From an uncultured Anaerolineaceae bacterium (GTDB lineage: Bacteria > Chloroflexota > Anaerolineae > Anaerolineales > E44-bin32): DNA of 62,979 nt. Position numbers and translations under genes: made by a program. How positions within the stretch are numbered: position 1 is the stretch's first letter; every line of letters starts with the position of its first letter. The notes beneath the pieces were generated by a model. That model saw only the letters and a list, made by a program, of their open reading frames with translations. It did no database searches and was not told where the DNA came from. The stretch lies in NCBI GenBank assembly GCA_964517315.1, contig CAZFCJ010000004.1, forward strand, positions 267 through 63,245, read 5' to 3'. Of this stretch, positions 21,352 through 58,253 are shown in pieces.

Positions 21352-22062
21352 TCAGCGGTCGGCCTGAAGCTGGAGAGCCTCCCTATCGAGAATGCGAATC
21401 TTCTTGCGGCCGATGTCGATCCAGCCGCGGTCTTTGAATTCGTTGAGCGTCTGTGTGGTCGTTTCCCGGTATGTCCCCAGCATTTCGGCCATGTCCTGGT
21501 GAGTGTAGCCGACGACGTCGTTGCGGCCGTTCTTGTGGCCGGCGAGTTTGATCAGCAAACCTGCGAGCCGGCTGGGGATGCTCTTGAAGGCGAGATCCTC
21601 CAATTTCTCCTCGGCGTCCTGAAGCCGGCGGGCCATCGCCTCCATGAAGCGCAGGGCCACCTGAGGCTTGTTGGTCAGGAGCCGCTCCACATCGATGCGG
21701 CTCATCACACAAAGCAAACACTCGTCGATGGCCTCGGCAAAAGTGTTGTGCATTCCCTGACCGACGATGGACATTTCACCGAAGATCGAGCCCGGTCCGA
21801 CCACCGCCACGACCAATTTCTTGCCCTCGGTCGATAACCGGTAAAGCTGGACCCGACCTTTCTTGAGCAGGAATAGAACCTCTCCGGTCTCCTCGGGCGC
21901 GTAGAAGACTCGACCCGGCTCGCACGTGGTCATGGTCGTGCGCCGGTCCATCTCTTGGACTTCTTCCTTGCTCAGGTCTTGGAAGACTTCGATTTTGGAA
22001 AGCGCTTTGAGTTTCGTCTCGTTCATCGTCATATCCATGGATTTCCGCTCACGGATGATCAT
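21352..22062 (-). CDS. Crp/Fnr family transcriptional regulator
   Basis: cNMP-binding beta-roll (GSIFGEMS) plus a C-terminal HTH (THQDMAEMLGTYRETTTQTL). Confidence 0.9.
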   Translation of the reverse strand: MIIRERKSMDMTMNETKLKALSKIEVFQDLSKEEVQEMDRRTTMTTCEPGRVFYAPEETGEVLFLLKKGRVQLYRLSTEGKKLVVAVVGPGSIFGEMSIVGQGMHNTFAEAIDECLLCVMSRIDVERLLTNKPQVALRFMEAMARRLQDAEEKLEDLAFKSIPSRLAGLLIKLAGHKNGRNDVVGYTHQDMAEMLGTYRETTTQTLNEFKDRGWIDIGRKKIRILDREALQLQADR

Positions 22063-22478: not shown

Positions 22479-23069
22479 GTGAAACATCACTGGAAATTGG
22501 AGGCATCAGCGTCGGCCGTGCGCTCTCACCGCCTACCTCTCATACTGCTGGGCGCCACGCTGCTGTTGGCGGCCTGCCGACAGGGCGCGGCCGCGCCGAC
22601 GGCGGCGCCGACCTTGCCGCCCCCAACTCCGACCGATGTGCCGGCCACTGCGACGCCCACTGAGGTGCAGGAGGCCTCGCCGGCGACGTCGCCGCCCGAA
22701 CCCACGGCGGAGGGACTGGGACCGATCCCCCAAGGCAGCTCCCAACTCAAGGCCAGCAATCCGACCCATGTCGACCTCTCGGCCGGGAAGCCCACGCTCG
22801 TCGAGTTCTTTGCATTTTGGTGACCGACGTGCCAGGCGCTGGCGCCCGTCGTGCACGGGCTCGAGGAAAAGTGGGGCGACCAGGTCAACTTCGTGTATCT
22901 TGACATCGAGGACAGCCGCACCGATTCCTTCAAGCGGCAGCTAGGCTACAACTACCAACCGCACTTCTTCCTGCTGGATGGACAGGGCCAGGTGATCGGC
23001 CAATGGATCGGCTACGTGCAGGGAGAGCAGCTGCAGCGCGCCATGCACCAGGCGCTGCAGGATGGTTAA
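22479..23069 (+). CDS. TlpA/ResA-like thioredoxin-fold lipoprotein with an in-frame TGA in the redox motif (candidate selenoprotein, W-U-P-T-C)
   Basis: ORFs 22479..22823 and 22851..23069 share one frame and are joined by TGA at 22821-22823. Read-through gives LVEFFAFW-U-PTCQALAPV...VNFVYLDIED...PHFFLLDGQG. Lipobox LLAAC. Confidence 0.65.
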
Positions 23070-24462: not shown

Positions 24463-25167
24463 TTATGGCCGGTGTGGATGGAAAAATCTATCTTCGGTCC
24501 ATTTGACTGGATTGCTGATGATGTATTCCTCAATCCTCCTGAGTTCATCATCATCTCGGATGATCCGATCATAGTAGTTTCGCTGCCAAAGTCTGTCTGG
24601 GAACCGTGGCCATCCCTCTCGCTTGACCTGCCGAATATAGTGGAGTGTAGTGATCGATTTGAATCCCTGAATCACGCGACCCAATGATCCTGGCCTTGTT
24701 CCACTCGGAACCCTGCTATCACGTGAGGAATTGGCTGATCTCGGACTGGTCTGTTGGTCATTGTCGTCGGGGCGAACACCAGGTTCGCCCCTACGAATGG
24801 GAGGGGGTAGATTCCAGTCCGCGACTTCACCTTCATTTCCGTAGGGGCGATCCTTGTGATCGCCCTGGTCTTCCTCGCGGTCACCTGGCTCGTGGGTGTC
24901 AAGAATATGTACGATCCCGTGAATGTGGTTAGGCATGACGATATGAGGGCCAAGTTCGATGTAAGGAAATCGCTCTGGAAGCCCGGTCCAGACCCTGTCT
25001 ATCATCCGTCCTCCATCGTTTGGAACTAACTTGTCATTTCGGACCACTCCAAACAATGGAATGCGTCCCTCTGTGACTATCGTGACAAAATACGCCCCAA
25101 GCGATCGATAATCCCATCCAGCCAACCGCCGGCCCGAACGACGCTTCCGATGTCCAGACACAATCAT
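24463..25167 (-). CDS. IS200/IS605-type Y1 (HUH) transposase-like protein, RAYT-like
   Basis: GAYFVTIVT, HUH motif MPNHIHGIV, C-terminal LWQRNYYDRIIR. Lower GC than its neighbours. A variable insert carries two hairpins. Confidence 0.8.
   Translation of the reverse strand: MIVSGHRKRRSGRRLAGWDYRSLGAYFVTIVTEGRIPLFGVVRNDKLVPNDGGRMIDRVWTGLPERFPYIELGPHIVMPNHIHGIVHILDTHEPGDREEDQGDHKDRPYGNEGEVADWNLPPPIRRGEPGVRPDDNDQQTSPRSANSSRDSRVPSGTRPGSLGRVIQGFKSITTLHYIRQVKREGWPRFPDRLWQRNYYDRIIRDDDELRRIEEYIISNPVKWTEDRFFHPHRP
24766..24794. repeat. REP-like hairpin (GTcGGGGCGAAC-accag-GTTCGCCCCTAC) inside the RAYT ORF
   Basis: 12-bp stem with one mismatch. Confidence 0.8.
24844..24866. repeat. REP-like hairpin (GGGCGATC-cttgt-GATCGCCC) inside the RAYT ORF
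   Basis: 8-bp perfect stem preceded by GTAG. Confidence 0.75.
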
Positions 25168-37878: not shown

Positions 37879-38739
37879 TCAGGAGTCTTGGTCTAACAGA
37901 CGCTCGACCAACGTGTTGAGCTCTTCATCCGAATAGAAGTGCAGCGTGAGCGTACCACCCTGGTCGCTGCGCCGCAGCTTGACCTTCGTGCCCAGCGCAT
38001 CCCGCAGGTCTGACTCGAGGGCCTTCTCCTCGGGATTGAGTTGTGGCGATTTCCGTCGCTTCTTGCGCCGTTTGCCGCCCAGCCTTCGGACGAGCGCCTC
38101 GGTTTGACGGACGTTCAAGCCCTGATCGAGCACGGTCTGCAGCGCGGCCAGCTGCGCCTCCTCACCGTCAAGACTCAAGAGGGCGCGCGCGTGGCCTTCC
38201 GAGAGCCGGCCTCGCTCGACGGCGGTCCGAGCTGCGTCGGGAAGGTTGAGCAGGCGCAAGGTGTTTGTAACCGTGGAGCGGCTCTTCCCGACTCGTTCGG
38301 CGATCTGCTCGTGCGACAGGTCGAAATCCTCGGCCAATTGGCGATAGCCTTCCGCCGCCTCGAGCGGGTTGAGGTCCTCTCGCTGCAGGTTTTCAATCAA
38401 GGCCCAAACGATCAGCTGTTCGTCGGTCGCTTCGCGCACTACGGCGGGGACGGTGCTCAAGCCGGCCTGACGGGCGGCCTGCAGGCGCCGCTCCCCGGCG
38501 ATCAGAAGATACTGGTCGCTGTCCTCCGGCTGTGCGACGATAAGCGGCTGCAGTACCCCGTGCTCGCGGATCGAGTCGGCGAGCTCCGCCAGTTCACCGG
38601 CGTCGAAGTTTTGTCTAGGCTGGCGCGGGTTGCGCTCGATGGAATCGACGGGCAGCTCGCTCACTTCACTGGCGGCGGGCTTATCGCCGCTGGGGATGAG
38701 TGCGTCCAATCCTTTGCCCAGGCCCCGGCGTCGGCTCAT
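37879..38739 (-). CDS. parB: chromosome partitioning protein ParB
   Basis: RGLGKGLDALI, NPRQPR, ALIENLQRE, HTH. Start is the ATG directly after the parA stop. Confidence 0.9.
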   Translation of the reverse strand: MSRRRGLGKGLDALIPSGDKPAASEVSELPVDSIERNPRQPRQNFDAGELAELADSIREHGVLQPLIVAQPEDSDQYLLIAGERRLQAARQAGLSTVPAVVREATDEQLIVWALIENLQREDLNPLEAAEGYRQLAEDFDLSHEQIAERVGKSRSTVTNTLRLLNLPDAARTAVERGRLSEGHARALLSLDGEEAQLAALQTVLDQGLNVRQTEALVRRLGGKRRKKRRKSPQLNPEEKALESDLRDALGTKVKLRRSDQGGTLTLHFYSDEELNTLVERLLDQDS

Positions 38740-38740
38740 A

Positions 38741-39544
38741 TCAGGCCTCCTCACGCGCGGCGACGGAGGGGACACGGATGCCGTCGGCTTGCAGGATCTC
38801 GTCCGCCAGCGCCTGGTAGCCGAGGGCGCCAGCGGAGCGCGGCGCATATTCGGAGATCGGCAGTCCATGCGATGGGGCCTCCGCGAGCCGCACGCTGCGT
38901 GGGATCACGGTCGTAAATACCTTGTCCGAGAAATGGCGTCGGACTTCGTCGACGACGTCTTGAGCGAGATTGGTGCGGGCATCGTACATCGTCATCAACA
39001 GGCCGCGTATGCGCAGCTCGGGGTAGTAGGCCCTGCGGACCCGCTCGATGGTACCCATGAGCTGGGAAAGCCCTTCGAGCGCCAGGTATTCACACTGAAT
39101 GGGAATGAGCACCCCGTCGCTCGCCGCCACCAACCCGTTGATGGTCAGGATCCCGAGCGAGGGTGGGCAGTCCACCAGGATGTAATCGTAGCGGCCATCG
39201 AGCGGCGCCAGGGCTTCGGCGAGGAGACGGCCCCGACCCTCCATGTCCACCAACTCGACCTGGGCTCCCGCCAGCCCGGCGGTGGAAGGGAGCAGTGAGA
39301 GCTGAAGTTTCGTGTTGCGCAGAATGTTGTCCGCGGCGGGGACTTCACCGATCAGTGTCTCATAGGTCCCGCTCTCGACTTGACGATGATTGACGCCCAG
39401 GCATGAGGTCGCGTTTGACTGTGGATCGAGGTCCACGAGCAGGACGCGTTGATCGCGCAGGGCGAGGTACGCGCCCAAATTAATGGCGGTGGTCGTCTTG
39501 CCCACGCCGCCCTTTTGATTGACCATGGAGATGATGCGCGTCAT
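38741..39544 (-). CDS. parA: chromosome partitioning ATPase ParA/Soj
   Basis: NQKGGVGKTTTAINL deviant Walker A. Confidence 0.9.
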   Translation of the reverse strand: MTRIISMVNQKGGVGKTTTAINLGAYLALRDQRVLLVDLDPQSNATSCLGVNHRQVESGTYETLIGEVPAADNILRNTKLQLSLLPSTAGLAGAQVELVDMEGRGRLLAEALAPLDGRYDYILVDCPPSLGILTINGLVAASDGVLIPIQCEYLALEGLSQLMGTIERVRRAYYPELRIRGLLMTMYDARTNLAQDVVDEVRRHFSDKVFTTVIPRSVRLAEAPSHGLPISEYAPRSAGALGYQALADEILQADGIRVPSVAAREEA

Positions 39545-40386
39545 GAGTTCGCTCGTGCCGCCTGGATCTCTTCGCTCGTGGGTACCGATTCTAGACCGAC
39601 CCGCCCGACGGAGCGAGAGGCCAGCTTGTTGGCAAAATGGGCCGCCTTGATCGGATCGGCCGTCTCATCGTAGCGGATCACGAACGAAGGGGCAAAGATG
39701 TCGCCGGCACCCGTAGGGTCAATCTGCTCCTCGTGCGGTGCCGGGACGTGGGTAGGGGTCCCCTCCTGAAAAACTCGGGCTCCATCCTCGCCGGCCGTGA
39801 GGACGAAGAGAGGGTACCGTCCTGCCAGACGCTTGATCCAGCTCCTTTCGCCGTTGATGTCCTCCTCGCTAAGGATGCAGATGTCGCCGTTGGGCAGGGA
39901 GCGGAAGACGTCGTCGGCGTCCTTGCGGCTCACCTTGCCGTCGGCGCTCCAGCGCCGCAGCCATCCTTGCGGGGTGAGCAGAAGCGTCGAGTCGGGGAAC
40001 GCGCCGGCCAAGCCCGGGTCGATTTCGTCGGCGATCGGCGCCAAATGGACCCAGCGCGCGCCGCGCCAGGCCTCGGGGACGCAGTCCAGGTCCAAATCCA
40101 GGGCGCGGCCGTGAAGGCGCTGCTCCCGCTTGCCGTCGATGTACTCGTTGACGAATGAGGTGGACTCCGGACTGTCGATGACGTGCAGTCTTAGGCCGCG
40201 CAGGGGCGACAGATCGAGCTCCTCGGCGGCGGAGGTGACGACGCCGACCCGCACGCCAAAGGCCGCCGCGGTGAGGCCGGCGAACGCGGCCGTTCCTCCC
40301 AGTCGGGCGCCGCCGGGAGTTTCATCCCTCGAGAGGTGTCCGACGATCAAGTAATCAACTGGCGCGCGGCGACTTGGTCCGACCAT
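39541..40386 (-). CDS. PfkB family carbohydrate kinase
   Basis: DPTGAGDIF C-terminal motif. 4-nt overlap with parA. Confidence 0.8.
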   Translation of the reverse strand: MVGPSRRAPVDYLIVGHLSRDETPGGARLGGTAAFAGLTAAAFGVRVGVVTSAAEELDLSPLRGLRLHVIDSPESTSFVNEYIDGKREQRLHGRALDLDLDCVPEAWRGARWVHLAPIADEIDPGLAGAFPDSTLLLTPQGWLRRWSADGKVSRKDADDVFRSLPNGDICILSEEDINGERSWIKRLAGRYPLFVLTAGEDGARVFQEGTPTHVPAPHEEQIDPTGAGDIFAPSFVIRYDETADPIKAAHFANKLASRSVGRVGLESVPTSEEIQAARANS

Positions 40387-40428
40387 GCTGGCCTTGGGAG
40401 CTCCGTAGTTCCTGGGAGAGATGTCCTC

Positions 40429-41166
40429 TCAAGCCTCGGGGATGATCGTTACTTTGCGGCGGTCCCCTTCGCCGACGCTCTGGGTGCGGACGCTGGGATG
40501 GTCGCGCAGCTCCACATGGATAATCCGGCGCTCGTTGGGGGGCATTGGCTCGAGGGCCAAGGTCCGTCCCCGCTCGACCGCCTGGTCGGCCATGCGACGG
40601 GCGAGGCGCCGCAGAGTTTGCTCACGACGGGCCCGGTATCCTTCAATATCGATCACCAGCGGAACTGATTTCTTGAGTTCCTTCCCGAGGATCAGGCGGA
40701 CGATGTACTGCAGGTCGTCCAATGTGTCACCGTGACGACCGATCAGAATGCTGAGGTCGCTGCCGGTGATGTCGACCAGCAGCGGGCGGGTGCGACCGGG
40801 TGCGTCCGGCTCGCCCCAGCGGGCCTCGATGTCGGCCTCGACCTCCATCAGCTCAAGCAGGTCTTCCACGGTGTCCCTGGCCAGCTGAACGGTCAGGGCG
40901 TCTTCGTCTTCCTCGAGCTCGAATTCGCGTTCGGCTGGCTCTCCCGGTGAAGGGCGTTCGGCCTCCATGGGCTCCGGGGCGTCCCCGCGCAGCGTCAGGC
41001 GAACTCGGGCCTGGCGTGCGCCGACTCCGAACAGACCCTCGCGGCCTTCGTCCAGCACCTCGACCTCCAAATCGTCGGGCGCGACCCCCAGCTCTTGGGC
41101 GCCGAGGGAGATGGCCTCGTCCACGGTCGGGGCGATTTTCTCGATACTTGGTTTGCTTTCTGGCAT
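40429..41166 (-). CDS. jag: Jag/KhpB (Jag_N-KH-R3H) RNA-binding protein
   Basis: KH-like and R3H (ERRIIHVEL) motifs, downstream of yidC. Confidence 0.85.
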   Translation of the reverse strand: MPESKPSIEKIAPTVDEAISLGAQELGVAPDDLEVEVLDEGREGLFGVGARQARVRLTLRGDAPEPMEAERPSPGEPAEREFELEEDEDALTVQLARDTVEDLLELMEVEADIEARWGEPDAPGRTRPLLVDITGSDLSILIGRHGDTLDDLQYIVRLILGKELKKSVPLVIDIEGYRARREQTLRRLARRMADQAVERGRTLALEPMPPNERRIIHVELRDHPSVRTQSVGEGDRRKVTIIPEA

Positions 41167-41196
41167 GCCTGGATTCCCTGTCGTTGACGCGAGTGC

Positions 41197-41952
41197 TTAG
41201 CTGCGGCTGAACAGCTCCGACCAGTCCACGTCACCCGTCACAGCGTACTGGAACACCTGCAGGATATTGGAGGCGACGAAGTAGAGCGCCAAGCCGGCGG
41301 CGAACGTATAGGCGAAGTAACCGAGCAAAAGGGGCATGTAAAGAGACATCATCTGCGTCATCTGCGCGCCCTGGCCCTGCCCCGCGCCGGTGGCGGGAGT
41401 GGTCAGCTTCGTGGACAGCCAGGTGGTCAGGACGACCAGAATGGTCAAGACCGGGATCCCAAACGGGATCCCCGGCAGGTGAAGGCGCTCAGGCTGTCCC
41501 AGCTCCATCCACAGAAAGCGGCTGTTGAGCGGAATCAATCCGCTGGGGATGGCGGGATAAATGTGCTTTGAGAGCTCGTAGAGCTGGAGGGGGGCGTCGG
41601 CCAGCGCGCGGATGATGGACTGGTACAGGCCGATGATGATCGGAAACTGGATTACGAGTGGCAGACAACCGGCCAGCGGATTGACCCCCATCTCACGGTA
41701 AAGTTTGAGCATCTCCTCCTGTTGCTTCGCCCGGTCGTCCTTGTACTTCTTCTGGATCTTCTTCGCCTGTTTGGATTCCTGCAGCTCCTGCATCTTCTTC
41801 GTGCTGCGCTGCTGCTGATAGGTCAACGGGAACGTGATCATCCGAATGATGCCGGTCAGGACGATGATGGCCAGTCCGAAGTTCTGCCCCAGCAATTCAT
41901 AGATGAAGAGCAGGGCGTTGATCATTGGGTTTAGAACGATCAAATCCCACAT
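41197..41952 (-). CDS. yidC: membrane protein insertase YidC (short form)
   Basis: 251 aa. PLTYQQQRSTKKMQELQ ... NPLAGCLPLVIQFPI. Confidence 0.9.
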   Translation of the reverse strand: MWDLIVLNPMINALLFIYELLGQNFGLAIIVLTGIIRMITFPLTYQQQRSTKKMQELQESKQAKKIQKKYKDDRAKQQEEMLKLYREMGVNPLAGCLPLVIQFPIIIGLYQSIIRALADAPLQLYELSKHIYPAIPSGLIPLNSRFLWMELGQPERLHLPGIPFGIPVLTILVVLTTWLSTKLTTPATGAGQGQGAQMTQMMSLYMPLLLGYFAYTFAAGLALYFVASNILQVFQYAVTGDVDWSELFSRS

Positions 41953-41964
41953 TGTTAAGTAACT

Positions 41965-43047
41965 TTACTCCTCCGCGGGTTGGAACGTCCAGCGGATGGC
42001 GCCGGACTCCGAGTCCATCGCCGTCAGCAGACTCTCACCGTCTACGGCCGTCACCAACAACGAATCGTTCACGATCAGCGGATCGGCTAACAGCCTGCCC
42101 TCGAGCGGCTGCTCCCACACCGGATCGTTGGTCTCGCCCTGGCGGGCGAAGACCGTCCCTTGTTCGGTCACGAAGAACACCCGGCCCTCGGCGTAGACCG
42201 GACTGGCGGCCACACCGCCGTCGAGCGCGTTCTTCCACACGGTCGTTCCCTGCTCGTCGACGGCGTACAGTGCACCGCTCACGTCACCGAAGTACGCCAG
42301 GCCGTCGCCGATCGCCGGATTGCCCCATACCCAATCGTCGGTCGGCACCGTCCAGGCCACCTCGCCGCTTTCCTCGTCGATCGCGTTGAGGGCCTCGCCG
42401 AATGTGCCGGTCAAGAGCAAGCCGTTCAAGCGGGCCGGCTGATCGGCGAGGGCGCCACCCAGTCGGCGGCTCCAGATCAACGACCCGTCTTCGGCGTTCA
42501 GCGCATACACATGGTGGTCGAGCGCAGCCACGTATGCTCGATCGCCGACCACAAGCGGCCGCGCCCAGATCGAGTGTTGCGACTCGAACGTCCAGGCCAG
42601 CTCCCCGTCCTCCAGGTCAAGCGCGTACAGGTTGCGGTCGGACGAAGGGACGAGCAACAGATCACCGGCGACGGAGGCACCTCCGACGATCCGCCCATCG
42701 GAAAGCTTGCGTTCCCAGATCAGCCGGCCGTCGTCGCGGCCGAGGGCGAAGACGACCCCCTGGTAGCCGCCCACAAAGAGACGGTCCTCATGTAGTGTGG
42801 GCGGGGCGTAGAATCCGCCGTCGCCTTCAATCTCGGGGCTGAAGCGCCACAGCTCCTCCCCGTCGTCCAAACCGACGGCGTATACGGCCTGGTTGAACGC
42901 GACGTAGGCGCGTTCCCCGTCGGCCACCAGTCCCGGCCAGCTTGAGCTGGGGTTTGTCGCCCCGGCGCAGCCGGCCAGGAGGAGAGCGACCAGCGGCAGG
43001 AGCAACCAAAGCGGCCGGAAGCGGCGGGTTGAGAGATGGGGTGCCAT
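41965..43047 (-). CDS. PQQ-like beta-propeller repeat lipoprotein (BamB-like fold)
   Basis: Lipobox LLAGC. Repeated YA(L/V)D..(D/T)G...W blades. Confidence 0.8.
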   Translation of the reverse strand: MAPHLSTRRFRPLWLLLPLVALLLAGCAGATNPSSSWPGLVADGERAYVAFNQAVYAVGLDDGEELWRFSPEIEGDGGFYAPPTLHEDRLFVGGYQGVVFALGRDDGRLIWERKLSDGRIVGGASVAGDLLLVPSSDRNLYALDLEDGELAWTFESQHSIWARPLVVGDRAYVAALDHHVYALNAEDGSLIWSRRLGGALADQPARLNGLLLTGTFGEALNAIDEESGEVAWTVPTDDWVWGNPAIGDGLAYFGDVSGALYAVDEQGTTVWKNALDGGVAASPVYAEGRVFFVTEQGTVFARQGETNDPVWEQPLEGRLLADPLIVNDSLLVTAVDGESLLTAMDSESGAIRWTFQPAEE

Positions 43048-43054
43048 GGAACTC

Positions 43055-43342
43055 CTATGGGACGGGATCGTGGCCGCCGGGGTGAAACGGCTGACAGCGC
43101 AGGATCCGCCAAACCGCCAAAGCGCCTCCTTTGACCAGGCCGTATTTGGCGATGGCCTGATAGCCGTAGTGCGAGCAGGTCGGGTAGAAGCGGCAGGTGC
43201 CGGCGGGCAGCGCTCGGGATGCGGTCTGCTGGTACAAGCGAATCAGGGCGAGAACGGGAAGTCGGGCCAGCGTACCCCAACGCAGCGGGATTTCAGACAG
43301 CGATGGCTCGGTGTGATAGTGCGTGTTGTCCTCAACGGTCAT
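43055..43342 (-). CDS. yidD: membrane protein insertion efficiency factor YidD
   Basis: [15 protein letters not shown] motif. ATGA overlap with rnpA. Confidence 0.85.
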
Positions 43343-43689
43343 GCGTCTTCCTCCGGGCGAAGCACGCCCGCCTGCTCGAGCAGGTCCTGAACGGCCGCGG
43401 TCAGCTCTTCCCAGGGAGCCTCTAACAGCTGCACCCGGGCAATAAATACCAGATCCCACCCCGGCTTGGTGGTCCGAAGGTGAGGCTGCAATGCGTGCCG
43501 CAGGCGGCGCTTGGCCCGATTTCGCTCCGTAGCTTTGCGGAGTCCCCGGCTGGTGGTGACCCCGAATCGAGGTTGCCCCAGCGAGTTGGGGCTCACTACC
43601 AGAACAACGAGCGGGTGGGCATAGGTTCTGCCAGTACGCCGCACCCGCTTGAAGTCGGTTGGGCTGGTAAGCCGGAAGTTGCGTTCCAT
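43339..43689 (-). CDS. rnpA: ribonuclease P protein component
   Basis: [15 protein letters not shown] ... [12 protein letters not shown]. Confidence 0.9.
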
Positions 43690-43757
43690 TCGGAAGGCGG
43701 CCGGAAACCGGCCGCCTTTTAGGGCCGCGCAAGGGCCCGGGTTATGGGCGAACCTTG

Positions 43758-43934
43758 CTAACCCTTCCAGTCGACCTTCTTGACGTGGTTATTCATCTTA
43801 TGTGAAAGTCGCTTGCGGCCCTTCTTGCGCCGGTTCTTGATCACCTTGCGGCCGCCCTTTGACTTCATGCGGGCGCGGAACCCGTGCTTACGGGCTCGGC
43901 GACGCTTCTTCGGCTGATAAGTACGCTTTGGCAT
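43758..43934 (-). CDS. rpmH: 50S ribosomal protein L34 (with about 14-aa C-terminal extension)
   Basis: Hand translation: [58 protein letters not shown]. Below the 60-aa cutoff of the ORF track. Confidence 0.85.
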
Positions 43935-43988
43935 AAGAAATTAACCTCGTCTTTCGACGCGTACGTTCCCTCTCAAACTCGATCCTTG

Positions 43989-44017
43989 ATTATAACGTAA
44001 CCGCCAGGCGCGGTCAA
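43989..44017 (-). promoter_or_regulatory. rpmH promoter TTGACC-17 nt-TATAAT
   Basis: Near-consensus hexamers read on the minus strand. Confidence 0.55.
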
Positions 44018-44099
44018 CGTGAGGGGCGCTACGCACGCCGAGAACGAATTGCGCTGTGGCTGGTCGTTGAACAAGGGACGATGAGGCGGCCAGCGCGCG

Positions 44100-44128
44100 T
44101 TGCTGGGGGCGGACGGCTGATCTATACT
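44100..44128 (+). promoter_or_regulatory. promoter TTGCTG-17 nt-TATACT; ATG lies 7 nt after the -10 (leaderless)
   Basis: Direct reading. Confidence 0.45.
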
Positions 44129-44135
44129 CGACCTC

Positions 44136-44900
44136 ATGACGCGCGCGATCGCAATTGCCAACCAGAAGGGCGGGGTCGGCAAGACGACTACGGTCATCAA
44201 TCTGGGCGCGGCGCTGGCTGAGCGCGGAAAGCGCGTGCTGCTGGTCGATCTAGATCCCCAAGCCGCGCTGACCGCCGCCGTGGGGCTCGACCCCTACCGA
44301 GTCGAACTTTCAACGCTGGCGCTGCTTCTCGACGAGGCCGCGCCGACCGAGGAGCTGATCCATCCTATGGGCGGGGCGCTGTGGCTGGCGCCGTCCGCTG
44401 TGGATCTGTCGGCGGCGGAGTTCAGATTGGCGCACGTGAATAACCGCGCCCGGCGGCTGAGGGCGGCGCTGGCCTCGGATCATGTGGCGGTGGACTTCAT
44501 TTTGATCGATACTCCTCCCAGCTTGGGCCTGCTCACGGTCAACGCGTTGACCGCAGCCGACGAATTGATCGTGCCTGTGGAGTGCCAGTACCTCGCCCTG
44601 CGGGGCGTGCGGGCGCTTTTGGAGACGACGCGCCTGGTCCACGATCGGCTGCACCCCGACTTGAGACTGTTGGGCTTGCTGCCCACGATGTACATCGAGG
44701 ATTCGCAGCACAGCCGGGCCGTGGTCGCGGAGCTGCGATCGGTGTTCAAAAGCCGCGTGTTCGACACCCTGATCGAGTACGACGAAGCAGTGGCGATGGC
44801 GCCGGCCGCGCGCAAGTCGCTGCTGGCCTTCAAACCGGACAGCCCCGCGGCCGCCTCCTACCGGCGGCTCGCCGACGAGGTGATGCGCGGGAGGCGATGA
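44136..44900 (+). CDS. orphan ParA/MinD-family ATPase
   Basis: NQKGGVGKTTTVINL deviant Walker A. No adjacent parB. Confidence 0.85.
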   Translation: MTRAIAIANQKGGVGKTTTVINLGAALAERGKRVLLVDLDPQAALTAAVGLDPYRVELSTLALLLDEAAPTEELIHPMGGALWLAPSAVDLSAAEFRLAHVNNRARRLRAALASDHVAVDFILIDTPPSLGLLTVNALTAADELIVPVECQYLALRGVRALLETTRLVHDRLHPDLRLLGLLPTMYIEDSQHSRAVVAELRSVFKSRVFDTLIEYDEAVAMAPAARKSLLAFKPDSPAAASYRRLADEVMRGRR

Positions 44901-45209
44901 GGGGGCGCGGGGGAGGGCGGATCCATGGGGGAAGAGAAGCGTTGGCGGCGCTCGATCCCGCTACAGGGCCACGACTATGTCGGTCCCGGAGCGTATTTCA
45001 TGACCATTTGCACCGACCGTAGACGACCCCTCTTCAGCACGGTGCGAAATGGGGTGATTCAGATGACCCCGCTGGGGAGTCTAGTGGAAGAGGAATGGCT
45101 GCGAACCGGTCAAATTCGCGATGAAGTTCGCCTGGATGAATACGTGATTATGCCCAATCACATCCATGCGATCGCGTTCATCGTGAAGGATCAAGCGCAA
45201 GACACCGGT

Positions 45210-45237
45210 GTAGGGGCGACCGGCCGGTCGCCCCTAC
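45210..45237. repeat. perfect 28-nt palindrome GTAGGGGCGACCGGCCGGTCGCCCCTAC (REP-like)
   Basis: Direct reading. Followed by the 10-nt palindrome GGTCCGGACC (45241-45250). Confidence 0.9.
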
Positions 45238-45557
45238 GAGGGTCCGGACCGGCAACTGGGTCACTTGGCGTTGGTCGCGGGCTTCAAGGCATCGGTAACC
45301 ATACGGACAAGACAGGAGACCGGCCAGCCGGACCTCCAGGTTTGGCAACGGAACTATTACGAACGCGTCATCAGGAATGAGGGGGAATCGAACCGCATAC
45401 GCCGGTACATCCGGCAGAATCCCTTCCGCTGGAAAGCGACCCTTACTTCACGGAGGGCTGAGCCACAGTCACGCCAGACAGCTGCCAGTCCGCCGAAGAC
45501 CCTCTCAGGGAGGCGCCTCTTGACTCTAGAACCAACCGTATCGTCATATTCGGCCTT

Positions 45558-45632
45558 GACCGGCCGACCCTACGACGGTCCGGACCGGCGTCCGGGTCAC
45601 TTGGTGCGTGCGTCGCGGGCTTCCTTTCACCG
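45558..45632. repeat. degenerate duplicate of RAYT internal segment 45217-45290
   Basis: Hand alignment, roughly 75-80% identity, keeping the GSLGACVAGF reading frame. Confidence 0.6.
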
Positions 45633-45696
45633 GAAGGGAGAATGTTCCAAGGGCCCGTCCCGAACACATACGGGGCAAATCTGAACCACTGCCCCC

Positions 45697-46983
45697 TCAA
45701 TCCTCCACCCGGTCAATGTGGGCCCCGAGGTCACGCAGTTTCTCGTCAATTCGCTCGTAGCCCCGGTCGATTTGGCCGATGTTGCGGATCTGCGACCTGT
45801 CCTGGGCCGCCAGCGCGGCCAGGACAAGGGCCATGCCGGCGCGGATGTCCGGGCTCTCCAGCGTTTCCCCGACCAATTGGGTGGGTCCCTCCACGATACA
45901 GCGGTGCGGATCGCACAGGATCACCCGGGCGCCCATCGATACCAATTTGTCGATAAAAAACATGCGCGTCTCGTACATCCAATCGTGGAACAGCGCGGTT
46001 CCCTGGCACTGGGTGGCCACGACGATGGCGATGCTCATCAGGTCGGTCGGAAACGAGGGCCAGGGCATCACGGAGATCTCGGGGATGGCGCCGCCGACGT
46101 CGGGTTCGATTTTCAGCGCTTGTTCACCCGGGACGACCAGGTCCTCTCCCTGCACCGTCCAGGTCACACCGAGGCGCTGAAGGACCAAGTGGATCATGTC
46201 CAGGTGCTCGGGGCCGGCCTGCCGGATGCGGATTTCACCGCCGGTGACCGCCGCCGCGCCGATGAAGCTCACCACCTCCAGGTAGTCCGGGCCGATCGTG
46301 TATTCCCCCCCGGAAAGCCGATCCACGCCCTGTACGTGCAGGGTGTTCGAGCCGACGTTCTCGATCCTGGCCCCGGCATGGTTCAAAAAGTGACAGAGTT
46401 CCTGCACGTGAGGTTCCGAAGCCGCGTTGCGGATGACCGTTTCGCCGCGGGCGGTGACCGAGGCCATGATGGCATTTTCGGTGGCCGTGACGCTGGCTTC
46501 GTCCAGCAGAACGTCGGCGCCATGGAGCCGGCCAGGCGTGTTGATGTGATACTGTCGGTCGTGGTACTCAGTCTCGGCCCCAAGAGTATGGAATGCGAGC
46601 AGGTGCGTGTCCACGCGCCGGCGGCCGATGACGTCCCCTCCCGGCGGTGGAATGTCGATGCCGCCCACGCGGCCCAACATCGGCCCCGCCAAGAGGACCG
46701 AGGCGCGGATGCGACGGCACAGTTCCGGGTCGAGGTTGGCGCGGCGCACCTGGCTGGCGTGGATCCGCCAGCTGTGCGGCGACAGCAGCTCGACTCTGAC
46801 GCCCAGGCTCTCCAGCAATCGGCGCATGGCCTTCGCATCGCCGATGTCGGGGATGTTGTGTAGCGTCACGGGCTCATCAATGAGCAGCGTTGCCGCCAGC
46901 AGCGGCAGGGCGGCGTTCTTGTTGCCTGAGGGGGTCACTTCACCCTTGAGCGGATAGCCGCCCTCAATGAGAAAACTGGTCAT
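45697..46983 (-). CDS. murA: UDP-N-acetylglucosamine 1-carboxyvinyltransferase
   Basis: 428 aa. GEVTPSGNKNAALPLLAA ... DRGYERIDEKL. Confidence 0.95.
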   Translation of the reverse strand: MTSFLIEGGYPLKGEVTPSGNKNAALPLLAATLLIDEPVTLHNIPDIGDAKAMRRLLESLGVRVELLSPHSWRIHASQVRRANLDPELCRRIRASVLLAGPMLGRVGGIDIPPPGGDVIGRRRVDTHLLAFHTLGAETEYHDRQYHINTPGRLHGADVLLDEASVTATENAIMASVTARGETVIRNAASEPHVQELCHFLNHAGARIENVGSNTLHVQGVDRLSGGEYTIGPDYLEVVSFIGAAAVTGGEIRIRQAGPEHLDMIHLVLQRLGVTWTVQGEDLVVPGEQALKIEPDVGGAIPEISVMPWPSFPTDLMSIAIVVATQCQGTALFHDWMYETRMFFIDKLVSMGARVILCDPHRCIVEGPTQLVGETLESPDIRAGMALVLAALAAQDRSQIRNIGQIDRGYERIDEKLRDLGAHIDRVED

Positions 46984-47822
46984 TGCGCCTCCCCATGGAT
47001 CATCTTGACGCGATCGCCCAGGTTGGCCTTCAAGCGCTCGTCGGCCCGACCGCGGTTGACGGCTACTTCCAGCAGACCCTCGCTTCCGATGTAGGCGACG
47101 AGGTCCCCCTCGGGGACGTCAGCGAAGGTCCCGTGCAGCGCCAGTTCGGAGCCCTCCGGCAGCCTTACCCGCACCCCCTCGACGTCGAAAGACCGTCGAT
47201 GCGCGTTCGGAAGCCAGGGGTCGAGGTGAGCCTCACTGCCCTGTAGCCGCATCCGCCCAATCGAAGTGATCAGGTTGCCGAAGCGGTCGATATGCACGAT
47301 TTCGCCCTCGACCTCGTCGACCTCCTGATGGAGCGCTGGCAGTTGAACGCGTTCCAGAGTCTCCGCCCTGGGCCCGAAAGCGTCGAGGGGGACGCCCTGT
47401 GCCAAATGCGCCCCGGCCGGTGCGAAGACATCGCGCCCGTGGAAGGTCGAGCTGACACGATCGAGCCGGTAGCGTGCGGATCGAAGTTCGTGGCTGGCCT
47501 CCGCCGGCGACGAGGCCAGCAGGTAGGACAGGACGCCGTTGTCCGGGGCCACCAGCTTGCGACCCTGCCAACCGACGACGATCGGGCGCCGCGCGGTTCC
47601 TACGCCAGGGTCGACAACGATCACGAAGATCGAGTGCTCAGGAAAGTAGCGAACCGCCTTCCACAGCTGAAACGCGCCGCCGCGGATGTCGCCGGGCGGC
47701 ACCGAATGGGTGACGTCGATCACATTCGCCGTGGGTGATATGGACGCGATGACTCCCTTCATCACCCCGACGTAGGTGTCGGCGGTGCCGAAATCCGTCA
47801 AAAGGCCGATGATGGGCAGCAT
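46980..47822 (-). CDS. SAM hydroxide adenosyltransferase (DUF62, chlorinase/fluorinase family)
   Basis: LLTDFGTADTYVGVMKGVI, VVDPGVGT, IDRFGNLITS. Confidence 0.85.
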   Translation of the reverse strand: MLPIIGLLTDFGTADTYVGVMKGVIASISPTANVIDVTHSVPPGDIRGGAFQLWKAVRYFPEHSIFVIVVDPGVGTARRPIVVGWQGRKLVAPDNGVLSYLLASSPAEASHELRSARYRLDRVSSTFHGRDVFAPAGAHLAQGVPLDAFGPRAETLERVQLPALHQEVDEVEGEIVHIDRFGNLITSIGRMRLQGSEAHLDPWLPNAHRRSFDVEGVRVRLPEGSELALHGTFADVPEGDLVAYIGSEGLLEVAVNRGRADERLKANLGDRVKMIHGEAQ

Positions 47823-47966
47823 GCGGGATCCTTTCGGGTGGCGCGGATTCTAGCGGAGGCCCTCTGCACGGTCAATCCGACCCGTGCCCGCCACGCATTA
47901 AGGGCGTCCCGACGGGGCCGAAAGCCTAGAACGGGTGTTCTATTCGACGGCGTTCGGGGCCTGCGC

Positions 47967-49016
47967 ATGGTAAAATGGGAATTTGTGAGTAGCAAAGTAT
48001 CCGGGGGAAACCAGGCCCCGATCGGCGTGATGGCATCATATGTACAGGGCTTCGATCGCGTCGCTGCTCGACCTTTGCTTCTGTTGCCCCCGCTCCTGCT
48101 CGATTTGTTCCTTTGGTTGGGACCCAAGGTTACCATTTCACCGCTCATGGAGCGCGTAACCTCCCAAATGGGCGCCCCGATTGCAGGTGACGAGGCGCTG
48201 CAGGAGCAAGTTCGGCTGATCCGTGACGCGCTGGCGACGATAGGCGAGCAATTCAACTTGCTGACCTCCTTGAGTTCGATCCCGACGGGGGTCCCGAGCC
48301 TGATGGCGGCGATCATGCCAGAGAGCGCGCCGGTCGAGCTGTTCTCCAAGATGCAGATTGGGGAGCCGGGCCTCGTGCTCATGGCTTGGTTAGCGCTCAC
48401 GGTGGTCGGGCTCGGTCTGGGATCCGTATATCACCGCTGGATCGCTCGTGCGGCGGCCCCTGAAGCCAATCTCCCGTCGGGGCTGTGGGCGTGGGGCCGG
48501 CTGTTGCTCTTGGCCCTTATGGCGTATGGTGGACTCCTGGTGGGGGGGTCAGTGGCCCTCGTCTTGGCGGCCACGGCCGCGGTCATCCTTCCGTTGTTGG
48601 GTATTGGAGTCAGCTTTGTCGCGTTCAGCTTGCTGTTCTGGTTGGTGGTGTATTTGATCTTTACGCCGCATGGAATCATCCGCTATCGCTTCGGCGTCCT
48701 TCGCGCGATGATTGAAAGCGCGCTGATTGTACGCTGGAATTTCTTGCCGACAGTGGGCTTTCTGGCCTCGGCGCTCTTCATATCATGGGTCACCAACATG
48801 GTGTGGGCGTTGCCGGAAAGCAGTTCGTGGTACAGCATGTTGGCCATCGTTGGGCACGCGTTTATCAGCGGAATGATCATCACCAGCAGCTACACGTTTT
48901 ACCAGAGTCGGCGCGAGTGGCTGGTGAGAGCGCGCGCAGAGGTCGAATCGCGGTTGCACGCCATGGAAGGGTCGACCGGTACTGAAGAAGGTAATTCGGA
49001 CGGAGGAGTCAGCTAG
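47967..49016 (+). CDS. hypothetical polytopic membrane protein
   Basis: About 6 TM helices. Start is uncertain (47838, 47967 or 48030). Confidence 0.55.
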   Translation: MVKWEFVSSKVSGGNQAPIGVMASYVQGFDRVAARPLLLLPPLLLDLFLWLGPKVTISPLMERVTSQMGAPIAGDEALQEQVRLIRDALATIGEQFNLLTSLSSIPTGVPSLMAAIMPESAPVELFSKMQIGEPGLVLMAWLALTVVGLGLGSVYHRWIARAAAPEANLPSGLWAWGRLLLLALMAYGGLLVGGSVALVLAATAAVILPLLGIGVSFVAFSLLFWLVVYLIFTPHGIIRYRFGVLRAMIESALIVRWNFLPTVGFLASALFISWVTNMVWALPESSSWYSMLAIVGHAFISGMIITSSYTFYQSRREWLVRARAEVESRLHAMEGSTGTEEGNSDGGVS

Positions 49017-50972
<1,956 letters not shown>

Positions 50973-53949: not shown

Positions 53950-54354
53950 TCAGGCGGCGGCCCGGAGCCGAGGACGGAATTTATAGCCGTAAAGAATCAG
54001 GTCGCGTTCGCCGCCGCTGCGCAGCTTACGGGTCACCATTTCGACCGGCATGCCGATCTCGACGTGCTGGGCCCCGACGTCGGTCAATTGCGCCGTTACC
54101 AGGGGGCCCTCGTCAAGCTTGACCAACGCGACCGTGTACGGGGCGGCCTCCTCGTGGCCTTTCGGGGCGTCGTACACCGTGGTGTACGAGTACACGCTTC
54201 CCTGGCCGCTGAAATGGTGCAGGTCGCGCGCCTCCTTCCCGCAGTCCGGGCAGACGTCACGCGGGGGAAAGATCTTGTTCTCGCAATGCGGACAGACTTC
54301 GCCCAGGAGGGCGTAGCGTTGCCTGCGGTTTCTCCAGTGTCGTGATACTTCCAT
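53950..54354 (-). CDS. DUF35 Zn-ribbon/OB-fold protein
   Basis: CPHC...CPDC zinc ribbon, then an OB fold. Last gene of the mevalonate operon. Confidence 0.85.
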   Translation of the reverse strand: MEVSRHWRNRRQRYALLGEVCPHCENKIFPPRDVCPDCGKEARDLHHFSGQGSVYSYTTVYDAPKGHEEAAPYTVALVKLDEGPLVTAQLTDVGAQHVEIGMPVEMVTRKLRSGGERDLILYGYKFRPRLRAAA

Positions 54355-54452
54355 AGTCGAACACCTCAGTTCGGGAACTTCCCTCAGTCGCGTTTGAAAT
54401 TTAGCGGTTTTCAGCTCTCAGGAACTATCAGATCGGCAGAATCCGGCGCTTC

Positions 54453-55655
54453 TCAGGGCTGAGAAGCGGTGCGAGAACCGGAATCATCGCCCCGAACCAG
54501 AAGATGGGTAGCGCAGGTAGCTCCATTGGCGCCGAGGCACTGGATCAGGGCCGTGTGCGCCTCTGGCACTTGATTTTCGCCGGCTCGGCCCTGCAGCTGC
54601 AGGGAGGCCTCCGCCGCTTGGTACACGCCGGTGGCGCCCACCACCTCGCCGCGGGCTTTCGAACCGCCGAAGGTGCTGATCGGGATGCGGCCGTTGAGAT
54701 CGATGTCGCCGTCGGCGGCCAGGCGCCAGCCCTCACCCCGATCGGCGAATCCCGCCGCCTCCAGCGCCAGTGCGGAGTAAACGGTGAACAGATCGTGCAG
54801 CTCGAACAGATCCACCTGCTCCGGAGCCAGCCCCGCCCGTTCATAGACCGACCGGGCGGTTTCGCGTGCGGATTGCAAAGTCAGTAGGTCCTTCTGATCA
54901 TGCAGGGCCAAGGCCGAGGTGCGGGCAGCTGAAGCGGCGATGCGCACCTTGGGGAAAGGCCAGTCGGGCGGAAGGATTCGGTCGCGTGTGAGCAGAAGAG
55001 CTGCCGCTCCATCCGCCAGCGGCGCGGCGTCGAACATATTCACCGGTTCACTGACCATCGTCCCGCTGGCGTAGGCTTCGGCGGAGATGGCCCGGCGGAA
55101 CATCGCGTTCGGATTGTGGACGCCGTTGGCGTGGGCGGCCAGGCTGAAGCCCGCCAGGGCGTCCGGGGGTGCGTTGTATTCATGCAAGTAGCGCCGCATG
55201 ATGAGCGCCGCCAAGGCTGTGGGCGTAACACCCTGAATGGCCTCGTAGTCGGCGTCGGTGGCGGAAATCAGCGCCGCGTCGACTTCCGCGCTGACCGACT
55301 CCGAGAGCTTTTCGACGCCTACGACCAGCGCGATGTCGACCTCCCCGGCCATGATGGCCATGAACGCCTGGCGGAGGGCCACCCCACCCGACGCGCCGGC
55401 GGCCTCCACGGTATGAGCCTCTACCCCCCCGAGACCGGTATAGTCGGCGATCAAGGCCCCCAATTGGGATTGCCTGGAGAGGGGGGCGGCCAGCATGTTG
55501 GCCACGAAGAGGGCTTGCGGCTGAAGGCGGCCCGCATCCTCCAACGCGGCGCTTATGGCCTGGTAGGCGAGATCGCGCAGCGAGAGCTCCCAATGCTCTC
55601 GGACCGGGGTCATCCCCAGCCCGGCGATGATCACATCATTGTTCTCAGGACCCAT
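54453..55655 (-). CDS. thiolase-domain protein (archaeal-type acetoacetyl-CoA thiolase)
   Basis: 400 aa, thiolase fold, C-terminal CLGANGATC-type motif. Confidence 0.85.
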   Translation of the reverse strand: MGPENNDVIIAGLGMTPVREHWELSLRDLAYQAISAALEDAGRLQPQALFVANMLAAPLSRQSQLGALIADYTGLGGVEAHTVEAAGASGGVALRQAFMAIMAGEVDIALVVGVEKLSESVSAEVDAALISATDADYEAIQGVTPTALAALIMRRYLHEYNAPPDALAGFSLAAHANGVHNPNAMFRRAISAEAYASGTMVSEPVNMFDAAPLADGAAALLLTRDRILPPDWPFPKVRIAASAARTSALALHDQKDLLTLQSARETARSVYERAGLAPEQVDLFELHDLFTVYSALALEAAGFADRGEGWRLAADGDIDLNGRIPISTFGGSKARGEVVGATGVYQAAEASLQLQGRAGENQVPEAHTALIQCLGANGATCATHLLVRGDDSGSRTASQP

Positions 55656-55668
55656 GATCCTCCTTTGC

Positions 55669-56742
55669 CTACGACGTCGTCAGCTTGCCGCGATAACGAG
55701 CATAGGTCGCGTAGTCGATTTCGACGCGGCGGTCCACGTAGGTCGCAGTCTTCGGTGCGGCGTCCTGTCGGCCGCGGATGCCTTCGGTGACCCGCAGGCT
55801 GAACGCGTCGGAGCCGGCGCCCGAGCCGTAGGACACCATCAGGATGCGGTCGCCGGGGTCGGCAATGTCCAGGATGGCGGTGAGGCCGATCAGCGCCGCC
55901 CCGGCGTACGTGTTGCCAATGCGTGAGACGAGCATCCCTGTCTCAATCTGGTCTCGAGTGAAGCCCATCGCCTTCGCCGCCCGTTGAGGGAACTTGGCGT
56001 TGGGCTGATGAAAGACGGCAAAGCGATAGTCCTCCGGCTTGGCACCCAGGCTTTCCATGAGCCGCTCTCCGGCCGCCGAGATGTGCGCGAAGTAAGCGGG
56101 TTCACCCGTGAAGCGCTCCCCGTGCTCCGGATAAATTTGGTCGGCGCGGCGCCAGAAATCCGGCGTGTCGGTGCTGTACGAATAGCTCGCTTCGTAGACG
56201 GCCAGGGCTTCGTCCTGGGGGCCGAGCAGGAACGCCGCCCCACCCGCGCCGGCCGTGTACTCAAGCGCATCTCCGGGTCGTCCCTGGGCGGTGTCCATTC
56301 CAATGGCCAGCGCGTAGCGGGCCATGTTCGAGCCGACGAAGCCGATGGCTGCCTGCATCGCCTCGGTGCCCGCCTTGCAGGCGAACTCCCAATCCGCCGC
56401 CTGGGTGTGTGGGGTTGCGCCGATGGCTTCGGCGACCACGGTGGCCGTGGGTTTCACCGCGTAGGGGTGGCTCTCTGAGCCCACCCAAACGGCCCGGATC
56501 AACTGGGGATCGATCTGGGCCCGGGCCAGCGCGTTGCGGGCGGCTTCGATGGACATGGTGATCACGTCCTCATCCAAGCCGGGAACCGCTTTCTCTTCAA
56601 TCGGCAGCCCCCCGGTCCCCCCTTTCCAAACCCTCGAAATCTCTGAGGCCGGGAGCCGGTACTGTGGCACGTACGCGCCGTAACCGACGATTCCGACCTT
56701 CTCACTTGGCCGAAGGATGCGGCCTACTCCGTCATCCGTCAT
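55669..56742 (-). CDS. hydroxymethylglutaryl-CoA synthase, archaeal-type
   Basis: 357 aa. [30 protein letters not shown]. Confidence 0.85.
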
Positions 56743-56793
56743 AAGTCATCTCCTCGCGGATCGCATAAAGGACCAGTGAATCCTCACAGGGTC

Positions 56794-58095
<1,302 letters not shown>

Positions 58096-58197
58096 CTCAG
58101 GGCGACGGTCCGTGTATAGGCGACATGGGCTGGCAAAAACTATCAGATCGCACCCCATGGGGGTACTTTGGTCGCAATCTGGGCGTCGAACGGGGTG

Positions 58198-58224
58198 CAA
58201 AGAAAAGAACCGGCGCGAGCCGGT
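58198..58224 (-). terminator. intrinsic terminator after the small membrane protein gene
   Basis: Minus strand: AACCGGC-tcgc-GCCGGTT followed by CTTTTCTTTG. Confidence 0.6.
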
Positions 58225-58253
58225 TTGGGTCCTGCTTGGGAGAAGTAGCCGGG

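Follow-up and report, generated by a model that had tools for sequence, protein, structure and literature searches.

Introduction

Thioredoxin-fold proteins with a UxxC redox motif are the most typical bacterial selenoproteins, exported and lipid-anchored selenoproteins are less common than cytoplasmic ones, and the Chloroflexota are known as selenoprotein-rich. In the current catalogue, thiol-redox selenoproteins are distributed over classes such as Thioredoxin (PF00085, UxxC), Thiol:disulfide interchange protein, Thiol-disulfide isomerase-like, Redoxin family, DsbA-like and DsbG-like (PMC13188914). The UxxC selenoprotein thioredoxin (PF00085) of Treponema denticola has been verified experimentally, and the Rcas_1661 family thioredoxin-like (seleno)lipoprotein (NCBIfam NF041057) is entered as a ‘DsbG-like protein’ with a UxxC motif (PMC13188914 Table 1). 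Interchange of selenocysteine (Sec) and Cys at the nucleophilic Cys of a CxxC centre is the typical pattern (PMC1794560, PMC13188914).

The phyla that decode Sec include the Chloroflexi (PMC1794560, PMC5322559), in which the Dehalococcoidia are among the most selenoprotein-rich bacteria (PMC13326102). In the order Anaerolineales, Sec-type formate dehydrogenases (FdhA) and Sec-specific elongation factors are encoded in single-cell genomes, and a Sec elongation factor is also encoded by Anaerolinea thermophila UNI-1 (PMC4959059).

The gene described here lies in a stretch of 62,979 nucleotides (the window) from an uncultured Anaerolineaceae bacterium. It is interrupted by one in-frame TGA codon, which very probably encodes Sec (a probability of about 0.92), as was proposed in an initial annotation made from the window sequence alone. 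The gene is compared below with its relatives in genomes and metagenomes and with the described selenoprotein families.

Structure of the gene and of its product

Two open reading frames, 22479-22823 (114 aa, GTG start) and 22851-23069 (72 aa), lie in the same frame with the TGA as their sole separator; on this point the ORF listing and the translation bear out the initial annotation. Reading through the stop gives ...KPTLVEFFAFW-(TGA)-PTCQALAPVVHGLEEKW...YQPHFFLLDGQGQVIG..., and QPHFFLLDGQGQ is found among the further residues that follow PTCQALAPVVHGLEEKW. The features of the gene are collected in Table 1. An in-frame GTG at 22518, which lies 14 nt 3' of a GGAGG sequence (22499-22503), may serve as an alternative start.

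Table 1. Position of the gene and of its predicted protein and RNA features in the window.
Feature	Position	Strand	Description
Full gene of the predicted selenoprotein	22479..23069	+	196-aa precursor with signal peptide and lipobox, Pro/Thr/Ala-rich linker of about 60 aa and thioredoxin domain; orthologues have the same layout
Signal-peptide hydrophobic core and lipobox L-L-A-A-C	22533..22577	+	Residues 19-33, LPLILLGATLLLAAC; from the translation
Thioredoxin-fold domain	22731..23066	+	beta-alpha-beta-alpha-beta-beta-alpha, with the predicted Sec at the N-terminus of helix 1; from Pfam and the model of a homologue
Predicted Sec codon UGA	22821..22823	+	First residue of the U-P-T-C redox motif (W-U-P-T-C); TGA in 24 of 81 family genes and in metagenome contigs
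Predicted SECIS helix 1, GCCA(G)-GCG-(C)UGGC	22831..22843	+	4 conserved bp (22831-22834 with 22840-22843); from RNAalifold; overlaps the second Cys codon
Predicted SECIS helix 2 (main element), GCCCGU-CGUGC-ACGGGC	22844..22860	+	6-bp stem, 22844-22849 paired with 22855-22860

When the stop is replaced by Cys, the protein matches the Pfam family Thioredoxin (PF00085) with an E-value of 1e-11 and 45.2 bits against a cut-off of 23.5, and it also exceeds the Pfam cut-offs of Thioredoxin_2, Redoxin, Thioredoxin_8 and Thioredoxin_9. When the sequence is aligned with its homologues, the first Cys of their W-C-x-x-C motif stands exactly opposite the stop, in agreement with the initial placement of the TGA at the N-terminal redox Cys. 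The AlphaFold model of P0001, the closest Cys homologue, with 56% identity in the domain, has block-mean pLDDT values of at least 93 over the domain. In this model the domain follows a disordered linker of about 80 residues, the redox motif is found at the start of the helix formed by residues 108-123, and the domain consists of only the seven core elements of the thioredoxin fold.

The top Foldseek matches are classical thioredoxins with TM scores of 0.75-0.86, and identity to solved thioredoxins is about 25-32%. In sequence searches of the PDB, classical thioredoxins and PDI a-domains rank above the solved ResA structures. The domain is therefore, on both counts, nearest to these proteins, and by its size, fold and motif it is a classical-size thioredoxin fold within the known Trx/UxxC kind. 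The TlpA/ResA type that had been assigned to it was examined with curated models, and the scores are well under the cut-offs for ResA (NF002854, 19 vs 170 bits), TlpA (NF047696, 17 vs 230) and DsbE (TIGR00385, 30 vs 123; NF011941, 22 vs 359); the label is therefore unsupported. None of the NCBIfam models reaches its own cut-off for the read-through protein.

Residues 15-33, R-S-H-R-LPLILLGATLLLAAC, end in L-A-A-C and fit the pattern of a lipoprotein, with a positively charged N-region, a hydrophobic core and a lipobox ([LVI][ASTVI][GAS]C). Since a signal peptide with a lipobox is present, the product is predicted to be exported, and Cys33 of the lipobox would be the +1 residue of the mature lipoprotein. 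Under a strict pattern, a hydrophobic stretch and lipobox Cys are found in 87 of the 123 TGA-form genes listed that have a stop-bounded upstream ORF; in a subset of the TGA forms, an N-terminal TM anchor replaces the lipobox. Therefore, because either a lipobox or a membrane anchor is kept in the TGA forms, the protein appears to be extracytoplasmic. The lipoprotein export signal noted at first is thus seen both in the LLAAC of the window gene and in its orthologues, with lipidation itself as a prediction. In several genes that fail the strict pattern (e.g. L001, L036, L077 and L086), a lipobox is visible by eye.

If the UGA simply terminated translation, two products would be made, namely a lipoprotein stub (about 113 aa) and, from the GTG at 22851 or another internal start, a C-terminal piece of 72 aa. 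Both pieces are given by the ORF listing, and gene callers would give them too. However, the split would part strand 1 from helix 1 of the thioredoxin fold, as modelled for P0001, so that neither piece could fold by itself. The C-terminal one would also be without a signal peptide, and the hairpin covariation described below is accounted for by a SECIS, with no need for a conserved start or ribosome-binding site. Separate products from the two frames are extremely improbable.

Conservation of the TGA codon

A profile of the domain was searched against one genome per bacterial species. The 80 loci that were found all belong to Anaerolineales or other Chloroflexota MAGs, the best being 67% identical, and these GTDB species-representative loci together with the window gene form the family set of 81 genes. 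The first redox codon is TGA in 24 of them, TGC or TGT (Cys) in 46 and a Ser codon (SxxS) in 11, and it is never TAA or TAG; this comparison of orthologues in the redox column had been suggested in the initial annotation. Outside the window, the TGA forms come from 23 species-level genomes of Anaerolineales/Chloroflexota. Complete genomes with the TGA form include CP070708.1 (Anaerolineaceae bin52) and CP070639.1 (Anaerolineales bin917). In every TGA gene of the species-level set, the frame continues for 78-82 codons after the TGA to a normal stop, and the sequence is conserved on both flanks of the codon. Disruptions at varied positions, which had been named as the mark of a true pseudogene, were looked for in the 81 genes, and no interruption was found at any position other than the TGA codon.

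Metagenome contigs were searched with a pattern made of TGG-TGA and both hairpins (see below). At least 120 contigs match, and all of the 120 listed are in-frame members of the family: 103 of them continue for at least 75 aa before a real stop, 14 end at the edge of the contig, and three are shorter. The 103 complete copies listed represent 100 distinct C-terminal sequences with a median pairwise identity of 53%. Among the matches listed, the locus closest to the window is 80% identical over 199 bases. The metagenome set adds no independent covariation, because it was selected by the hairpin pattern. The three copies with shortened downstream frames are L132, L137 and L194.

These data bear on the explanation that the gene is a pseudogene or a product of sequencing or assembly error, in which a TGC or TGT Cys codon was mutated or mis-read and only the N-terminal part of about 113 residues, or nothing, is made. 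The TGA is one base away from TGC and TGT, the full-length homologues found in the protein database are all of the Cys or Ser form, and the three shortened metagenomic copies among the 120 listed suggest that some copies may decay. However, 24 species-level genomes and about 100 distinct metagenomic sequences listed have TGA at this very codon; no other stop replaces it, and no other position is interrupted. Beyond the TGA, the reading frames are intact and subject to purifying selection, and constraint on an RNA structure is confined to the TGA genes. As a source of this conservation pattern, a pseudogene or a sequencing error is in practice refuted by the comparative data, and for the window gene itself this explanation has a negligible probability.

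An RNA element downstream of the TGA codon

In the 24 TGA genes, RNAalifold predicts two adjacent hairpins and no other structure (Table 1). The initial annotation had named two GC hairpins in this region, both of which occur in the window sequence. The one given as its alternative, GCCCGT-cgtgc-ACGGGC, is identical with helix 2 and is both conserved and covarying. The other one (22825-22851) is retained in part: its inner GCCA/UGGC pairing is conserved as helix 1, but its outer CGACG/CGUCG pairing is not conserved in the orthologues and clashes with helix 2, and the full hairpin was therefore rejected.

When both hairpins are considered, 98.8% of the cells of the alignment are paired, compared with 16-45% when the partners are slid by 1-3 columns. 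In helix 1, 99% of the cells are paired and the changes are one-sided only (A-U to G-U). The second Cys codon is TGC in 24 of 24 TGA forms, compared with 32 TGC and 14 TGT in the Cys forms. In helix 2, compensatory changes are found at three pairs, from G-C to A-U in ten sequences, from C-G to U-A in two and from G-C to A-U in one, and the observed covariation score was matched by none of 500 shuffles. In all 24 TGA forms, codon +9 (Val GUC or Ile AUC) changes in step with the His codon +11 (CAC or CAU). The silent change in the His codon follows the Val/Ile change, and therefore the base pair is kept. The compensatory changes perhaps represent few events, since most of the A-U forms are grouped together in a rough NJ tree.

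Because the element also encodes a conserved peptide, A-P-V/I-V-H-G-L, the Cys forms were used as a control; this peptide or a similar one is encoded by many of the 46 Cys-form genes. All 6 bp of helix 2 are present in 22 of the 24 TGA forms but in none of the 29 Cys forms scored, including those with an identical peptide. Synonymous codon entropy is lowered at codons +3, +7 to +10 and +12 in the TGA forms only and not in the 46 Cys forms. For example, Pro is encoded by CCC in 22 of 24 and Gly by GGG in 21 of 22 of the TGA forms, whereas four codons are used for each in the Cys forms. At conserved residues that flank the element, the third positions vary freely in both the TGA and the Cys sets, a pattern that shows purifying selection on the predicted post-TGA part of the protein.

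Two Cys forms are placed inside the TGA clade of the rough NJ tree. Both hairpins are intact in L014, which was scored separately from the 29 Cys forms above, and helix 2 has decayed in L007. Judging from their sequences, the two genes look as Sec-to-Cys reversions would be expected to look at different stages of SECIS decay.

The published bSECIS criteria ask for a loop of 3-9 nt, a stem of 4-16 bp, a G in the first two loop positions, a distance of 16-37 nt from the UGA to the loop and an MFE of -7.5 kcal/mol or lower (PMC13188914). Helix 2 agrees with all of them: the 5-nt loop CGUGC on its 6-bp stem has G at position 2, followed by U, and begins 26 nt after the UGA, and the 46-nt region has an MFE of -17.4 kcal/mol. 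In this DNA of 64% G+C, the single sequence folds no better than shuffled versions of it (z-scores of 0.09 and 0.49). The evidence for the putative SECIS is wholly comparative, in that the hairpins become significant only through the relatives of the gene. No SECIS or other relevant family was found in Rfam, at the gathering threshold or with E-values up to 10; a chance match to Twister-sister occurs on the opposite strand.

Decoding of the UGA codon

The UGA could also be recoded without Sec, if Cys or Trp were inserted by a near-cognate or suppressor tRNA or if UGA were reassigned throughout the lineage, with the hairpin acting as a generic stimulator of read-through. Such a mechanism would agree with the results of the search for the Sec machinery: selA, selB and selD (tblastn with E. 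coli queries) and tRNA-Sec (ARAGORN) were not found in the 63-kb window or in the short flanks of the 80 genomic and 120 listed metagenome loci. Because these flanks are short, it is to be expected that the Sec genes are missing from them, and Sec machinery has been reported from within the order Anaerolineales (PMC4959059). Against reassignment, more of the long genes in the window end in TGA (24 of 42) than in any other stop. A scan of the window for other in-frame TGA codons flanked by coding-like frames gave only adjacent gene pairs and antisense frames, so that no second gene has a coding signal on both sides of such a codon. UGA is not reassigned in the host. Furthermore, the recoded site is the nucleophilic Cys of a CxxC motif and interchanges with Cys in the homologues (PMC1794560, PMC13188914), and the loop, stem and spacing of the hairpin fit the bacterial SECIS model. 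Recoding without Sec is very unlikely.

Therefore, overall, the reading of the gene as a UxxC selenoprotein, which was the central claim of the initial annotation, is strongly supported by the conservation of TGA to the exclusion of other stops, by the intact downstream frames and by the covarying hairpin in the TGA forms. The proposed decoding can be described as follows. The gene would be translated as one polypeptide in which the UGA is decoded as Sec. Within the coding sequence, the mRNA would form a bacterial SECIS composed of the small helix 1 followed by the 6-bp helix 2, and, by analogy with known systems, SelB carrying Sec-tRNA(Sec) may bind the apical hairpin and bring Sec to the ribosome paused at the UGA. 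After export, Cys33 of the product would carry the lipid, and the flexible Pro/Thr/Ala-rich linker would hold the protein at the outer face of the cytoplasmic membrane. Its most likely role is that of an extracytoplasmic selenol/thiol-disulfide oxidoreductase with a U-P-T-C centre, which probably acts in the direction of a reductase. No electron donor of the CcdA/DsbD type was seen near the gene in a crude motif search of the ORFs at the loci.

Gene neighbourhood and evolution of the family

The genes csoR, copZ and copA lie directly downstream on the same strand in about 50 of the 57 loci with a Cys or Ser form and in five basal loci with a TGA form. By type, they encode a CsoR metal-sensing repressor, a CopZ-like metallochaperone and a CopA-type P-type ATPase. 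Since most of the Cys/Ser forms and the basal TGA forms are found upstream of csoR-copZ-copA, it is probable that the family originally had a role linked to copper stress at the cell surface. Judging from this synteny, the ancestral protein probably kept, for example, exported cysteines or a copper-handling partner reduced.

The window copy, for which a link with copper would be putative, has no adjoining cop operon and is a member of a subclade that has left this operon and acquired a conserved neighbourhood of its own. The genes for FtcD, a Crp-family regulator and a small MJ0307-type thioredoxin are found on one side and that for an acyl-CoA dehydrogenase on the other, and these genes flank the family member in up to 12 loci; the shared flanking genes support the predicted orthology of the window-type loci. 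One MAG contains both kinds of copy, an SxxS form beside the cop genes and a TGA form elsewhere (L052 and L054), and therefore the TGA subclade may be a paralogue. Overall, Cys, Sec and redox-dead SxxS versions coexist in the family, sometimes within one genome.

One evolutionary scheme, which is tentative and rather doubtful at present, suggests that these genes form a distinct, uncurated selenoprotein family: a surface-tethered W-U-x-x-C lipoprotein of Anaerolineae-type Chloroflexota, which was ancestrally the first gene of a csoR-copZ-copA operon and used extracytoplasmic selenium chemistry against copper stress, and of which a later duplicate, the window type, escaped from the operon. If this were so, selenium could serve to reduce copper-damaged disulfides or Cu(II), or to hand over Cu(I). 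The linkage with csoR-copZ-copA suggests a connection between selenium use and cell-surface copper stress that can be tested.

The gene also marks its uncultured Anaerolineae-type host as a likely user of Sec. Standard gene callers split or pseudogenise the TGA-form gene, which affects 23 species-level MAGs and at least 120 metagenome contigs, and the signature of TGA and hairpin may be used to repair the split annotations. With its Sec, Cys and Ser forms and two apparent Sec-to-Cys reversions, the family is a compact natural system for the exchange of Sec and Cys and for the evolution of the SECIS.

Comparison with known systems

TlpA/ResA/DsbE proteins are also membrane-tethered or periplasmic, with a thioredoxin fold and a W-C-x-x-C motif, and their models match the window protein weakly; however, as given above, the specific models remain far under their cut-offs. 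In its predicted location and its likely job the window protein resembles them. TlpA and Scs proteins have been linked to copper, and in this respect they resemble the family of the window protein with its csoR-copZ-copA synteny.

The NF041057 proteins are likewise thioredoxin-fold UxxC (seleno)lipoproteins, and their weak match to the window protein spans the region from the signal peptide to the redox motif. Membership was rejected, since the score is 19.1 bits against a cut-off of 190 and residues 24-120 match positions 3-106 of a profile of 247 positions; they are a different family. The Rcas_ locus tag presumably denotes Roseiflexus castenholzii, a species of the Chloroflexota, and the Rcas_1661 family would therefore set a direct precedent in this phylum for thioredoxin-like lipoproteins that are exported and contain Sec.

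The thioredoxin selenoproteins of the Treponema denticola type share with the window protein the PF00085 domain, a classical-size fold, Sec in the first place of the redox motif where helix 1 begins, homologues of the Cys form and a SECIS inside the coding region just after the UGA. Whereas they are cytoplasmic, the window protein is predicted to be exported and to be tethered to the membrane through its lipobox and its long linker. The canonical thioredoxin motif is W-C-G-P-C, whereas the window protein has W-U-P-T-C, and its score of 45 bits is far below the cut-off of 97 bits for the NCBIfam thioredoxin equivalog.

By its sequence, the window protein lies outside every curated specific family and inside the known UxxC thioredoxin-fold kind. 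No description of its family was found in the selenoprotein literature searched. Catalogues based on domains would probably file it under ‘Thioredoxin, UxxC’, and there is a modest chance that the family, with its copper link, deserves a description of its own. Current understanding is not overturned by this gene, which is a sound and fairly ordinary addition to a well-known kind of selenoprotein.

Apparent copper-operon neighbourhood of the family

At about fifty loci (L011, L015-L018, L020-L036, and others; L-numbers denote related loci), csoR (PF02583), copZ (HMA), and copA (P-type ATPase with HMA) lie 3' of the thioredoxin-like lipoprotein gene on the same strand. This set comprises most loci with a Cys or Ser form, i.e. 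with Cys or Ser as the first redox residue, as well as five with TGA at that codon. The exported thioredoxin-like protein looks like the first gene of a conserved copper-efflux operon.

In eleven family members (L029, L050, L052, L057, L059, L061, L066, L068, L070, L071, and L078), W-C-x-x-C is replaced by W-S-G-P-S, or in one case each by W-S-G-V-S and W-S-P-I-S, and therefore the redox cysteines are absent. All eleven have the cop-operon context. One MAG, DYGV01, has the Ser form at L052 together with the TGA form at L054.

Variation among the TGA forms

Two genes inside the TGA clade of a rough neighbour-joining tree, L014:2571 and L007:3082, carry TGC (Cys). Both SECIS hairpins are still intact in L014, and helix 2, the main element, is partially decayed in L007 (ACGGGC to AUGAGC). 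Both look like Sec-to-Cys reversions, with loss of the SECIS at a different stage in each.

Part of the TGA-form group (L084, L085, L095, L097, L098, L104, L106, L107, L122, L123, and L075) has an N-terminal transmembrane anchor and no lipobox Cys, while others have the lipobox; therefore, two modes of membrane tethering occur within the family. Among the 120 metagenomic TGA-form copies listed, of at least 120, three have a short frame after the TGA (L132, 20 codons; L137, 62; L194, 17) although no contig end cuts it off; gene decay or faulty assembly may account for them.

Gene neighbourhoods in the window

Features are listed in the table below. Genes typical of the surroundings of a bacterial replication origin are clustered at 37879-50972; no dnaA was identified. 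The gene run at 53950-58428 gives this Chloroflexota genome a module for HMG-CoA or the mevalonate pathway. The transposase-like ORF sits between the gene for acyl-CoA dehydrogenase and one that is acetyl-CoA synthetase-like.

Features of the window and of two cop-linked loci
Feature	Position	Strand	Remark
Crp/Fnr-family regulator	21352-22062	-
Small thioredoxin-like protein, 84 aa	22070-22324	-	C-L-N-C; Pfam Thioredoxin_3
REP-associated tyrosine transposase-like ORF	24463-25167	-	sub-threshold, 51 bits (cut-off 80)
parB/noc-like	37879-38868
jag-like	40429-41166		by eye only
yidC	41197-41952
rnpA	43339-43689
parA	44136-44900
gyrB	49017-50972
DUF35-like ORF, 134 aa	53950-54354	-	by eye
Thiolase-domain protein	within 53950-58428	-
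HMG-CoA synthase, archaeal-type	within 53950-58428	-	543 bits
HMG-CoA reductase	within 53950-58428	-	matches 'degradative' NAD-type model
DnaC/IstB-like double AAA protein	61591-62886
csoR-copZ-copA	L040:3452-6312	as family gene	downstream
csoR-copZ-copA	L058:3436-6309	as family gene	downstream

The window copy has no adjoining csoR-copZ-copA. This selenoprotein gene (+) is divergent from the genes of the Crp/Fnr-family regulator and the 84-aa thioredoxin-like protein, the latter matching the MJ0307-family thioredoxin model weakly, below cut-off. Six related loci keep this arrangement. The selenoprotein gene and its divergent neighbours may be linked through regulation or redox chemistry.
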